Below are positions 3,647 to 31,003 of a DNA stretch of 31,444 nt, one piece after another. The notes under the pieces were generated by a model. It saw nothing but the letters and a program-made list of their open reading frames with translations, did not search any database and was not told the origin of the DNA. Source of the stretch: Endomicrobiia bacterium (GTDB taxonomy: Bacteria > Elusimicrobiota > Endomicrobiia > PHAN01); NCBI GenBank assembly GCA_030018875.1, contig JASEHK010000001.1, forward strand, positions 1-31,444. Reading direction: 5' to 3'. A program made the translations under genes and the position numbers. Each line of letters starts with the position of its first letter. The stretch's first letter is position 1.

Positions 3647-4312
3647 TTATCCAAGTTTCGTACCGCACTCGCCGCAGAATCTCGTTCCGACAAAATTTTT
3701 CGCTCCGCATTTCGGGCATTTTATCAAGTCGAGCGGCCCGCCGCAGTTGTTGCAGAACTTACCCTCGCCGGCGGGTTTGCCGCATTGGGAACAGAGTGTT
3801 TGCTTGCTTTCAATTTCTCCGGTAAAGACCTGTGTGCCCGCCGCTTTTTCATGTATATCCTGAACCGCTTTTTGCGCTTTGGCGGCGGCCACTTCAACGT
3901 TTACTCTCGGAGCATCGTCCACACAAAGTCCTTCCTGTTCGTTCCAGTCGTTCTCGCAGACCCATTTTTTGCATTTCGGGCAACGATGAAAATGTTGTTT
4001 TGCTTCGTTCTGGGCAAGTTCAAACGCAACTTCATGTTCCTTGTGCCAGTCGGGGGACATACCCTGATAGCGTTCGGTGAGAATATCGGCTCCCCTTTCA
4101 ATCGTATAGCCCGTTCCATATTTTCCCAACAAAGACGTGCCTATTGACACCGCCCGGCCGAGGCCGCGAAGGAGACCGGCTTTTTTATGGGTTTTGGACT
4201 CCACAAATTTGGTCTTGTAACCTTCTCTGCACAGGTCGCAGAAAAAAGTAAACTGAAACCCCGCATCCGTGCTGTTATCCGCAAAATTACTCGTAAATGG
4301 TTGCAGCGACAT
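3647..4312 (-). CDS. Zinc-ribbon protein with C-terminal double zinc ribbon (DZR)
   Basis: GFQFTFFCDLC, HFHRCPKC, then CSQC/CNNC/CPKC/CGEC. SD AGGAGG. Confidence 0.85.
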   Translation of the reverse strand: MSLQPFTSNFADNSTDAGFQFTFFCDLCREGYKTKFVESKTHKKAGLLRGLGRAVSIGTSLLGKYGTGYTIERGADILTERYQGMSPDWHKEHEVAFELAQNEAKQHFHRCPKCKKWVCENDWNEQEGLCVDDAPRVNVEVAAAKAQKAVQDIHEKAAGTQVFTGEIESKQTLCSQCGKPAGEGKFCNNCGGPLDLIKCPKCGAKNFVGTRFCGECGTKLG

Positions 4313-11995: not shown

Positions 11996-12069
11996 TTTTC
12001 GTTCTCCCGCCCGTTTTATAGAAGATACTTCTTGCTTCTTGTCCCTCGATTATCTCAACTTCTTGCTTT

Positions 12070-14510: not shown

Positions 14511-14957
14511 TTATATCGCGTAATCCGGCTCCGTCGTTTCGATTATTTTGACGCGATCGAGCATATCGGCGAAAGTCGTATGGTCCACGATACGATTTGT
14601 GTAATCTCGGATGTCGCGCCACATATCCACGAACGGACATCCGGCGAAGGCGCGGCACGACGATGGCTCGGTCTTGCTTACACAGGTTATCGGCGATGTC
14701 GCCCCGTCCGTCAGGCGAATAATCTCGCCGAGACGGATTTTTTCGGGCGGTTTCGCCAGAGCAATTCCTCCGTCGGGACCACGACGGCTTCTGACATAGC
14801 CCGCGCCTTTTAATATAAGTATTATCTGTTCCAGATATTTCTTGGGTATGTCTTGACGCTCCGATATGTCTTTCACGCGCACAAGTCCCTTTTCGTAATA
14901 CTGAGCAAGGTCGAGAATTATTTTAAGCGCGTAATCGCCTTTGTAAGTAAGTTTCAT
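14511..14957 (-). CDS. Rrf2 family transcriptional regulator (CymR/IscR-like) with three Cys
   Basis: KGDYALK, IPKKYLEQI, SRRGPDGG and C-x8-C-x5-C. Confidence 0.93.
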   Translation of the reverse strand: MKLTYKGDYALKIILDLAQYYEKGLVRVKDISERQDIPKKYLEQIILILKGAGYVRSRRGPDGGIALAKPPEKIRLGEIIRLTDGATSPITCVSKTEPSSCRAFAGCPFVDMWRDIRDYTNRIVDHTTFADMLDRVKIIETTEPDYAI

Positions 14958-15023
14958 TTTTTCTTCGGCATCGCCGCGGAATGTTCAGCGCGTTTTTTTC
15001 GCGCCAATTAAGTTAAAATACGA

Positions 15024-15053
15024 TTGACTACTTTCTCTATCGTTTAGATAGAG
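15024..15053. promoter_or_regulatory. Probable Rrf2 operator
   Basis: Inverted repeat CTCTATC-N5-GATAGAG (15035-15053) abuts the -10 box, next to an IscR-like TTGACTA (15024-15030). Confidence 0.55.
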
Positions 15054-15080
15054 TATATAAAAAAAACGCCCATCTGTCAA
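15052..15080 (-). promoter_or_regulatory. Sigma70-type promoter of the Rrf2-met/cys operon
   Basis: TTGACA (15080-15075), 17 nt spacer, TATACT (15057-15052). Confidence 0.85.
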
Positions 15081-15116
15081 GTTTTTTAGTTTTTGTCTGT
15101 TTTCCTCGCGCGCTAT

Positions 15117-15259
15117 GCCATTCGCTTCTTGTTATTTTGAGTCTCCGCATCGTTAAGTCGGGGCGGACAACATACATTGTCACCATGAGCGACGCGAAAG
15201 GCGACGGTGGCGAATGCCTCGGAATGATAAGAAGCGATTGGCGGTCACTCGAAAGGTGA
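15117..15259 (+). ncRNA. Candidate structured non-coding RNA or ssDNA element; family not recognised
   Basis: 25-position stem 15117-15141 / 15218-15242 (24 paired, 4 G-U), internal multiloop, and two C-GAAA-G tetraloop hairpins. Confidence 0.5.
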
Positions 15260-15277
15260 AAAATAAAACCAAAAAAA

Positions 15278-15286
15278 TGTTATAAT
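15278..15286 (+). promoter_or_regulatory. Extended -10 promoter for glyS (short or no leader)
   Basis: TG-t-TATAAT ends 9 nt before the glyS ATG. No SD sequence. Confidence 0.6.
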
Positions 15287-15295
15287 CTTCGAGTT

Positions 15296-17473
15296 ATGAC
15301 CCCATCACAAAAGGCCGCCGAAACACCGTCGGACATCATCATTGAAATAGGCGCGGAAGAGTTGCCCGCTTTGTATATCGAACCGGCCGCTGAAGAGTTT
15401 GCGCGGATGGTCTCGGAACTTCTCGACGCAAAAAACGTCCGACACGGGGACTTTTCATATACCCACACACCGCGCCGTCTTACCGTTATTGTTCCGGAAG
15501 TCGCCGCCAAGGCGACCGATAAAACTGAAGAATTCATAGGCCCGGCCGTAGGAGCCGGACGATCCAATGACGGCTCCTTCAAAATCCCCGCGCTCGGCTT
15601 CGCGCGAAAACTCGGCATACCTCCCGAAAAACTCATCATCAAAAAACTTCCCAAAGGCGAATACTTCGCGGCAGAAATAAATATCCCCGGGGGGAAAACC
15701 GAAAAAATAATAAACGACGCCATGCCCGGCATCATCGCCCGCATTAAATTCCCGAAGTCAATGGTCTGGAACGACACCAAGTTTCGATTTGCCAGACCCA
15801 TAAGAAATATTCTGGCCATTTACGGCAAAAAAGTCCTGAAATTCGAGGTCGCCGCAATAAAATCGTCCAACAAAACTTTCGGGGCGGGTCCTGGATTCGG
15901 CAAAAAGATCGTCATAACCACCGCCTCCAAATACTTTCAAACGCTCAAAAACACCTGTGTTCTGGCCGACCACAAAGAACGCGAAAAACTCCTGAGGCGG
16001 GCGTTGGAAGCCGCCGCGGGGTCCGTCAAGGCCAGGGCTATCTTCGATGAAGATCTCGCGCGCGAAGTAAATTCTCTCGTGGAATATCCCACCGCTCTCG
16101 TCGGCAGATTCGATAAAAAATATCTTGCCCTGCCGGAAGAGATATTAGTCACGTGCATGAAGAAAAAACAGAAGTTCTTCGCCCTCAGAACAGCCAAGGA
16201 CGGGAGCCTTACGGAGAATTTTATCGCCGTCAAAAACGGTATATCGGCCGGCGTGGACAGAATCGTGGCTGGCTACGAAAAAGTGCTCGCAGCCAGGCTC
16301 GAAGACGCTTTGTTTTTCTACAATAATGATTTGAAACTAGGGCAGTCGCCGATGGCCTCAAAACTTGACGGCATAACCTTCCGCGAAGGCCTTGGCTCTA
16401 TAGCCGGCAAAACCGCGCGGGTAAAAGAGCTTGCCGTATCGTTTGCCGGCGTTCTCGGACTCGACGGCGATGCCGTAAAAAACATAGCCAGGGGAGCGGA
16501 ACTCTCCAAGGCCGATTTATCGAGCGAGATAATATTCGAATATCCGGAGCTTTCAGGAATCGCGGGCGCTATTTACGCAAAAAACGCCGGTGAAAACGAC
16601 AAGGTCTGCTCGATAATCCGCGAGCATTACTACCCTGCCTTGGCAGGCGACGGCGCTTTGCCCTCGACGACAGAGGCGGCCGTAGTAGCCATCGCCGACA
16701 AGGCGGATACTATCGCGTCGGATTTCTATCTGGGTATAATTCCGACGGGCTCCGAAGATCCCTACGGGTTAAGAAGAGTAGCCGCGGGGTTGCTCAGGAT
16801 TCTTCTTGACAAGAAAATCGGGCTCGCCGTTTACGGGGAAAATGTCCGCGGGATTTTCTCGGAAGCCGTGGATAAGATTGTTCCCGCCGGCGAAAAGCGC
16901 GCAAATGTCCGCGCTGAAATTCTCGTAAAGATACAGGATTTTTTAAGACAACGACTCGAAACAATTTTTCAGGAGCGAGGGTTCGCCGCCGACGAAATAA
17001 GAGCGGCGCTTGCCGCCGGATTCGACGATATTCCCGACACCGCAGCGCGGATTGAGGCCTTGAGCGTCGCCAAACGCGAGAGCGCTTTCGAGCAGATAAT
17101 CATACCGGTGAAACGCGCCGCCAATATATTGCGCGTCGCTCGCGGAGAGGACAATAAAGCCGCGAAAACGCCCGAGGCCGTCAACTATGGCGCGGCGACC
17201 GACGAGGCGTTGTTCGTCGAGATTGAGGAAAAGGAACTCTCGGCGGCCGTTGATTCTCTCATAGAAAAATTCAATTACTTCAAAAAATCAAAAGACTATC
17301 TTGGCGCGCTCAATCTTTTGTCCGGTCTGGCCGCCCCGCTGGAAAATTTTTTCAATAAGGTGAAGGTAATGGCGCCCGAGGAAAATCTCAGGCGTAACAG
17401 GCTGGCTTTGCTGAACAGAATCGTCGAGCGCTATCGGGCGATAGCCGACTTTTCCGAACTGAAAATCGGTTAA
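15296..17473 (+). CDS. glyS: Glycine-tRNA ligase beta subunit
   Basis: EIGAEELP, TPRRL, FARPIRNILA, EYPELSGIAG, GSEDPYGLRR and NRLALL motifs. Confidence 0.95.
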   Translation: MTPSQKAAETPSDIIIEIGAEELPALYIEPAAEEFARMVSELLDAKNVRHGDFSYTHTPRRLTVIVPEVAAKATDKTEEFIGPAVGAGRSNDGSFKIPALGFARKLGIPPEKLIIKKLPKGEYFAAEINIPGGKTEKIINDAMPGIIARIKFPKSMVWNDTKFRFARPIRNILAIYGKKVLKFEVAAIKSSNKTFGAGPGFGKKIVITTASKYFQTLKNTCVLADHKEREKLLRRALEAAAGSVKARAIFDEDLAREVNSLVEYPTALVGRFDKKYLALPEEILVTCMKKKQKFFALRTAKDGSLTENFIAVKNGISAGVDRIVAGYEKVLAARLEDALFFYNNDLKLGQSPMASKLDGITFREGLGSIAGKTARVKELAVSFAGVLGLDGDAVKNIARGAELSKADLSSEIIFEYPELSGIAGAIYAKNAGENDKVCSIIREHYYPALAGDGALPSTTEAAVVAIADKADTIASDFYLGIIPTGSEDPYGLRRVAAGLLRILLDKKIGLAVYGENVRGIFSEAVDKIVPAGEKRANVRAEILVKIQDFLRQRLETIFQERGFAADEIRAALAAGFDDIPDTAARIEALSVAKRESAFEQIIIPVKRAANILRVARGEDNKAAKTPEAVNYGAATDEALFVEIEEKELSAAVDSLIEKFNYFKKSKDYLGALNLLSGLAAPLENFFNKVKVMAPEENLRRNRLALLNRIVERYRAIADFSELKIG

Positions 17474-30933: not shown

Positions 30934-31003
30934 GGATTAAGTGGTAAGGATTAAGTTTTGTATTTTTTGCCTAATCCTTATCACTTAATCCTTAATCCTA
31001 ATT
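30934..31003. repeat. Long inverted repeat built from degenerate CTTAATC heptamers
   Basis: GGATTAAGTGGTAAGGATTA (30934-30953) pairs with 30972-30991 with one G-T. Tandem CTTAATC at 30984-30997. Confidence 0.75.

Follow-up and report, generated by a model that had tools for sequence, protein, structure and literature searches.

A hairpin element between the divergent Rrf2 and glyS genes of an Endomicrobiia bacterium as a probable mosaic of palindromic DNA repeat modules

In Neisseria, GTCAT-headed hairpins named NTS or SRM flank genes encoding single-domain GIY-YIG proteins of approximately 94 aa (Chenal et al. 2025, Nat Commun, PMC11893778). The hairpins are bound and cleaved by these Ssn proteins in single-stranded DNA form, whereas RNA and duplex are not substrates; a role of Ssn in moving or maintaining the repeats was left unproven in the same study (PMC11893778). 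The published SRM pattern reads HGTCWY..YYVSBRH..WNVSBRG..RNCYNB. Two further kinds of repeats are used for comparison below: BIMEs, which are REP clusters with RAYT in enterobacteria and pseudomonads, together with the neisserial NIMEs, and MITEs of the Correia/NEMIS type.

The window, i.e. the whole analyzed stretch of 31,444 nt, contains an Rrf2-family regulator gene and glyS in divergent orientation, and the 338-bp spacer between them holds a hairpin element of 126 nt. The features of the locus are listed in Table 1. In our judgment, the element is quite probably a mosaic of palindromic DNA repeat modules that is specific to its lineage and has decayed, and not a dedicated RNA gene. Under this reading, the long closing stem would have arisen from two copies of one repeat arm, inverted and head-out, each arm comprising a GTCAT-type head and a 12-nt extension, and two further repeat-derived hairpins would be enclosed between them.

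Table 1. Genes, putative regulatory signals and hairpin modules around the Rrf2–glyS spacer (window positions; a dot stands for no strand)
Feature	Position	Strand	Basis or remark
Rrf2-family regulator gene	14511..14957	-	PF02082, E 3.2e-35
Probable Rrf2 operator palindrome CTCTATC-N5-GATAGAG	15035..15053	.	surrounding block conserved in sister genome
Rrf2 gene promoter TTGACA-17-TATACT	15052..15080	-	11/12 matches
Whole hairpin element (closing stem and two inner hairpins), probable mosaic palindromic repeat	15117..15242	.	inverted repeat I1, folds
Left arm: outer extension GCCATTCGCTTC, then degenerate repeat head	15117..15141	+	paralogous to C330, C146
Left head TTGTTATTTTGAG, 1 mismatch from TTGTCATTNNGAG	15129..15141	+	GTCAT core mutated to GTTAT
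Inner hairpin 1	15145..15166	+	15151-15163 (CGTTAAGTCGGGG) = decayed copy of 19-nt palindrome CCCCGACGTTACGTCGGGG
Inner hairpin 2, starting with second head TTGTCACCATGAG (15177-15189)	15175..15216	+	contains GC-GAAA-GGC mini-hairpin
Right arm: inverted head CTCGGAATGATAA (15218-15230), then extension GAAGCGATTGGC	15218..15242	+	near-copy on C146
Small GAAA-loop hairpin directly outside the element	15245..15259	+	direct repeat D3, 85% to inner 15192-15204 motif
Extended -10 box TGtTATAAT	15278..15286	+	9 nt before glyS ATG (15296)
glyS, glycyl-tRNA synthetase beta subunit	15296..17473	+	PF02092, E 6.7e-165

The arms of the inverted repeat are 25 nt long each, with 76 nt between them, and 80% of their positions form Watson-Crick pairs. 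The closing stem (P1) thus consists of 25 bp, with 20 Watson-Crick, four G-U and one U-U pair, and lies exactly where a preliminary description of this DNA, made from the sequence alone, had drawn it. Folding of the region 15105–15270 as plus-strand RNA yields −62.5 kcal/mol (z −3.90; none of 200 dinucleotide shuffles was equal), against −50.7 kcal/mol (z −2.15) for minus-strand RNA; for single-stranded DNA the z-scores are −2.17 (plus) and −1.39 (minus). The plus-strand RNA of the element therefore folds clearly better than either DNA or the minus strand. The closing stem and the small downstream hairpin, described earlier as TCACTC-GAAA-GGTGA, are kept in all suboptimal folds within 3 kcal/mol. 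The interior had been drawn with helices P2–P4 and a mini-hairpin. Of this drawing the GC-GAAA-GGC mini-hairpin survives within inner hairpin 2, but otherwise the interior favors the two local hairpins of Table 1, and a partial rebuild of the former structure (P1, P3, P4 and the mini-hairpin, without P2) reaches −44.2 compared to −61.6 kcal/mol.

All parts of the element have counterparts among repeats of the same genome. The left arm is identical to C330:1422–1446 at 22 of 25 positions (22 of 24 over C330:1423–1446) and is also paralogous to a segment of contig C146; its local alignment score is 40, with 17.8 ± 2.5 for shuffled sequences. The right arm matches C146:174–195 at 21 of 22 positions and is also similar to C330:1423–1446. 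Taken together, the alignments of the arms with C330 and C146 score 39–40 against approximately 17.6 ± 2.4 for shuffles. Both sites are intergenic, the one on C330 being located in a gap between convergent genes. The inner head TTGTCACCATGAG has only two copies in the genome, at 15177–15189 and at C330:1398–1410, each time situated after the arm module and before a GC-rich hairpin. The element and C330 also have a T-rich flank module in common, the complexity of which is too low to count on. The convergent gap itself (C330:1063–1577, 515 bp) is packed with repeats, among them, in addition to the arm module, one GTCACCATGAG unit and a number of A-rich GACAAAAAAAG units.

The segment CGTTAAGTCGGGG of inner hairpin 1 is identical at 12 of 13 positions to the core of the palindrome CCCCGACGTTACGTCGGGG, which has about 30 copies (as a 12-mer count) and is found within loops belonging to five or more repeat families. 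In canonical repeat copies on C86 and C302 this palindrome directly follows the head, a place matching that of inner hairpin 1. The right head, like the left one, differs from TTGTCATTNNGAG by a single mismatch. The outer heads have GTTAT and ATCAT in place of GTCAT, and since the GTC core is lost from both, the present copy is likely to be inert and decayed. The inner head, TGTCAC (15178–15183), remains intact, with a hairpin after it. Only one full copy of the element exists in the 1.77-Mb assembly (341 contigs, 89.7% complete), while the parts recur elsewhere; any mobility of the composite would thus be hypothetical.

The head TTGTCATTNNGAG belongs to an abundant repeat class. The commonest 12-mer in the genome is TGTCATTGCGAG, with 59 exact copies, and the class TGTCA-N4-GAG has 82 matches versus 13 in the reversed control. 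There are 33 head-out pairs of the form TGTCATTGCGAG...CTCGCAATGACA with lengths of 52–171 nt; 29 of them are non-nested, and the range is 77–171 nt if a short nested pair is set aside. The pairs fold into a 12-bp closing stem enclosing three hairpins, of which the central one, GAAGCAATCTC/GAGATTGCTTC, is constant and the outer two are swappable cassettes. Examples of canonical elements are C295:122–224, C302:1199–1292 and C60:2923–3023, and there are sub-types where ATTGC/GCAAT gives way to ACCCT/AGGGT or ATTCT/AGAAT, with the pairing kept. The heads are enriched outside long open reading frames (48% versus 13.5% of the genome). Across the class, 114 copies of the head were counted in the same-genus genome G001 and 155 in G009; most other genomes have 0–1 copies, and the controls are near zero. 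Rfam models, applied at both gathering and permissive scores to 16 canonical repeat loci, gave nothing relevant, nor did the literature, queried with the repeat words and with the peptides that they typically encode.

The relation of the element to this class was assessed in three ways. A head-out pair was defined as two TTGTCATTNNGAG heads, with at most one mismatch each, in inverted orientation and 40–200 nt apart, and the reversed sequence served as a control. The pair formed by the outer heads of the element (15129–15230) is among the 29 pairs found by this definition genome-wide, with none in the control. The covariance model R1, built from 20 canonical copies, hits the element at 15128–15231 on the plus strand in the right register, at a noise-level score (10.3 bits, E 1.3, rank 5 among matches at background level). 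The pairwise score against canonical copies is 27, a marginal value given 19.9 ± 2.3 for shuffles and a shuffle maximum of 27. The element is hence a divergent relative of the canonical GTCATTGCGAG repeats and not a canonical member. Like the canonical TGTCATTGCGAG...CTCGCAATGACA pairs, it has inverted heads that form a closing stem enclosing hairpins, a size within 52–171 nt and a hairpin of the 19-nt palindrome type right after the left head. Unlike them, it lacks the central GAAGCAATCTC/GAGATTGCTTC hairpin and has a closing stem of 25 bp with the 12-nt extension.

Other palindromic sequences of the genome were noted along the way. An FMN riboswitch at C81:168–319 (92.3 bits, above the gathering score) has as its variable hairpin the 19-nt palindrome CCCGACGTAACGTCGGGG, which appears to land in hairpin tips, or to take their place, even where the RNA is functional. 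Long hairpins with arms of tandem heptamers (GGTAGAR, TTAAGGA, CTTCTTG and others) were seen at C88:800–920, C293:7100–7230 and, in the window, at 12028–12065 and 30934–31003. Some of them carry the 19-nt palindrome at the tip, and 12-mers of the AAGAAGT type rank among the genome's most frequent ones.

The genome also encodes a candidate partner of such repeats. The gene C25:4592–4894 codes for a single-domain GIY-YIG protein of 100 aa (PF01541, 66.7 bits) resembling Ssn and has GTCAT-stem-ATCTC hairpins on both sides; the protein could not be given a specific name by searches of PDB and NCBIfam. A second GIY-YIG match, on C333, is a stop-interrupted remnant without flanking hairpins, and neither PF13366 nor TnpB-type genes were found in the assembly. 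Homologues of the GIY-YIG protein occur in 25 of 61 genomes (the genome under study, G000, and 60 relatives), and at five checked loci of relatives they are flanked by GTCAT hairpins. At a sixth locus, G009:C20, hairpins of the GTCATTGCGAG type are seen downstream only, the contig ending just upstream of the gene. Among the hairpins at the relatives' loci some are of the exact Neisseria type, and others are of the GTCATTGCGAG type. The published SRM pattern has 20 matches in the genome versus 8 in the reversed control, and most of these are the Neisseria-type TGTCATTCCCGCGAAAGCGGGAATCCAG; it has no match on the contig of the window and also misses the abundant GTCATTGCGAG type.

Two observations from the relatives concern these genes. 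In G001, Ssn-like genes at C16:110700–111700 (L161) and on C7 (L162) have on their flanks hairpins that match the Neisseria NTS consensus TGTCATTCCCGCGAAAGCGGGAATCCAG exactly, so that the motif occurs in a very distant phylum. In the complete genome CP009498.1 (G025), an Ssn-like GIY-YIG gene lies directly 3' of glyS between GTCAT hairpins (717008–719307, L166). Its location beside glyS is probably a coincidence with respect to the glyS context of the window. We take CP009498.1 to be Endomicrobium proavitum, which places the genome of the window in the same class.

In comparison with SRM, including the NTS/dRS3 repeats of Neisseria that are linked with SsnA-family nucleases (Chenal et al. 2025, PMC11893778), the locus has in common, as far as its intact inner head goes, the GTCAT or GTCAC head followed by a stem-loop, further a wider family with many intergenic copies and, elsewhere in the same genome, a single-domain GIY-YIG gene (~100 aa) with such hairpins on either side; true NTS-type copies occur in this genome as well. 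It differs in that the element, with its outer heads GTTAT and ATCAT, falls outside the published degenerate pattern and is a 126-nt multi-module composite instead of a hairpin of 20–50 nt; cutting by a nuclease would here be assumed by analogy. The GTCAT-headed hairpins of this genome share the architecture of the Ssn-related motifs, and the modules may have been propagated in the form of single-stranded DNA hairpins, assisted by the GIY-YIG nuclease. The copy in the window would then be an inert fossil, left untranscribed between two divergent promoters.

The distribution of the element among relatives is consistent with an origin within its own lineage. A blastn search against 60 related genomes returned short chance matches only, and thus no homologue of the kind sought in the preliminary description. 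A scan of species-representative genomes with a 21-nt arm motif gave two matches, one in a coding region and one in a heptamer-repeat tract, with about two expected by chance. In G001, which belongs to the same genus and has a GlyS protein 71% identical, the Rrf2 gene and glyS are still divergent neighbors. The alignment of its spacer is confined to the Rrf2 start, operator and promoter block, and nothing aligns to 15117–15242. Instead, the G001 spacer carries a 288-bp element with 17-nt terminal inverted repeats, in which three GTCATTCTGAG heads in tandem, a pair of GCGAAGAATCTC tails and one GTCACCCTGA unit are present. This is the one orthologous spacer found, and with the element absent from it, a gain after the split from the sister species is the best explanation. 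An exact look-up of the Rrf2 protein gave no match. Relatives of this protein in metagenomes are at most 62% identical and lack the synteny with glyS, and therefore provide no orthologous spacers for the analysis of covariation. The gene arrangement is absent from the two nearest metagenome Rrf2 loci and from the glyS locus of G002, the only other relative whose glyS upstream region was examined.

Both genes flanking the spacer have candidate promoters. The TGTCAAGT stretch of the Rrf2 promoter region is also found in the G001 spacer. Immediately 3' of the Rrf2 promoter, and overlapping its start region, is the palindrome CTCTATC-N5-GATAGAG. It is conserved in G001 (L022, approximately 4095–4115) and is likely an autoregulatory Rrf2 operator. 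The genes downstream of Rrf2 code for two enzymes, one of the Cys/Met PLP type and one of the PALP type, and a CymR-like cysteine regulon is suggested by them. The operator and the −10 region are bracketed by a perfect inverted repeat with arms of 10 nt, GCGTTTTTTT/AAAAAAACGC (14990–14999 and 15060–15069, 60 nt apart). On the side of glyS, the extended −10 box was not called by the consensus promoter scan, as it has no −35 box. Its distance from the start codon implies that the glyS leader would be very short or absent and would exclude the element. The same scan found no promoter-like site on the plus strand upstream of the element. The element thus appears to lie upstream of both divergent promoters and outside their transcripts, as the preliminary description had it.

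The best surviving alternative, though an unlikely one, is a species-specific structured RNA recruited from repeat DNA, either a plus-strand small RNA or a long glyS leader, the stem of which is kept by G-U-compatible substitutions. Genes of the glyS class are often under the control of leader RNAs, and the element is directly upstream of glyS. The strong plus-strand fold, in excess of that of the minus strand, and the GAAA loops also speak for an RNA. All four wobble pairs of the closing stem are G-U on the plus strand, corresponding to C-to-T or A-to-G changes on that strand, and could point either to selection for pairing on that strand or to deamination with a strand bias. The preliminary description had taken them as typical of a selected RNA; all four do favor the plus strand, but they are four substitutions, and the chance of four transitions agreeing in strand is 1/8 (p ~0.125, either strand counted). 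The absence of a preceding plus-strand promoter-like site and the extended −10 box, which implies a transcript start past the element, argue against this alternative, as do the conserved synteny without the element in the sister genome and the lack of an Rfam match. Further, all parts of the element are shared DNA repeat modules, some of which lie in the convergent gap on C330. In the window, Rfam 15 covariance models gave nothing at gathering scores, and at E up to 10 only noise (snR67, E 1.6); ARAGORN detected neither tRNA nor tmRNA. The earlier statement that no T-box, glycine riboswitch, SRP, tmRNA or RNase P is recognizable agrees with this, the Rfam set including 6S as well. A novel selected ncRNA or a 6S-like RNA, both proposed there, found no support, given the lack of a homologue in 60 genomes, the absence from the G001 spacer, the lack of a promoter-like site on the plus strand and the origin of the parts. 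The third proposal, the RNA part of a mobile element, came closest. It is very improbable that the mosaic itself was recruited as a plus-strand RNA (sRNA or long glyS leader) with selection allowing only G-U-compatible changes of the stem; if true, this would be a functional RNA born from Ssn-type hairpin repeats.

Mobilization of a REP/BIME-type element by RAYT or an IS200-like Y1 transposase, with no link to GIY-YIG proteins, is decidedly unlikely. As in BIMEs and the neisserial NIMEs, short palindromic modules are reordered across intergenic sites in a species-specific manner, and a mosaic build is typical of BIMEs. The genome does have a Y1 transposase gene (Y1_Tnp, C161:2–418; PF01797, 38.8 bits; its HxH motif and YYEHIIR tail are evident on direct reading) and separate families of palindromes tagged with GTAG/CTAC. 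However, the arms of the element bear GTCAT-type heads and lack the GTAG/CTAC tetranucleotide of REP, the flanks of the Y1 gene carry repeats of other types, and the GTCAT hairpins flank GIY-YIG genes, here and at the five checked loci of relatives, so that the association is with GIY-YIG instead of RAYT. The coding region of the RAYT/IS200-like Y1 gene (L078), which runs off the contig end, appears to contain a small CTAC-tagged palindrome, CCGACCAAGGTCGG followed by CAACTACAA.

The element was also compared with MITEs. It is similar to them in its size (MITEs: ~100–150 bp), in having terminal inverted repeats, in being non-coding and intergenic and in its absence from the orthologous site of a relative. 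It departs from them in spite of its 25-nt inverted arms: no target-site duplication can be seen, the sequences on either side, GCGCTAT and GGTCACT, not being a direct repeat, there is one full copy, and the arms also occur singly elsewhere.

We give least credence to a functional site at the DNA level, a cruciform or protein-binding spacer insulating the divergent Rrf2 and glyS promoters and selected in place: the position between two promoters, the bulky palindromic mosaic also present in the spacer of the sister genome and the binding of IHF and gyrase by enterobacterial REP/BIME elements would suit it, but the mosaics of the two species are unrelated and fit a permissive landing site equally well, no motif is common to them past the Rrf2 operator block, and the arrangement is missing at the G002 and metagenome loci mentioned above.

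With a mosaic of repeat modules as the preferred reading, the finding matters little for biology at large: a striking hairpin would be repeat debris, and a false ncRNA lead is spared. A long stem with strand-specific G-U pairs is insufficient to argue for a selected RNA when its arms copy a genomic repeat. For the organisms concerned, a genome of the class containing CP009498.1 abounds in hairpin repeats with GTCAT heads and in Ssn-like genes. The dominant GTCATTGCGAG type escapes the published search pattern, and the repeats are often head-out doublets, in which a closing stem encloses three swappable hairpins.
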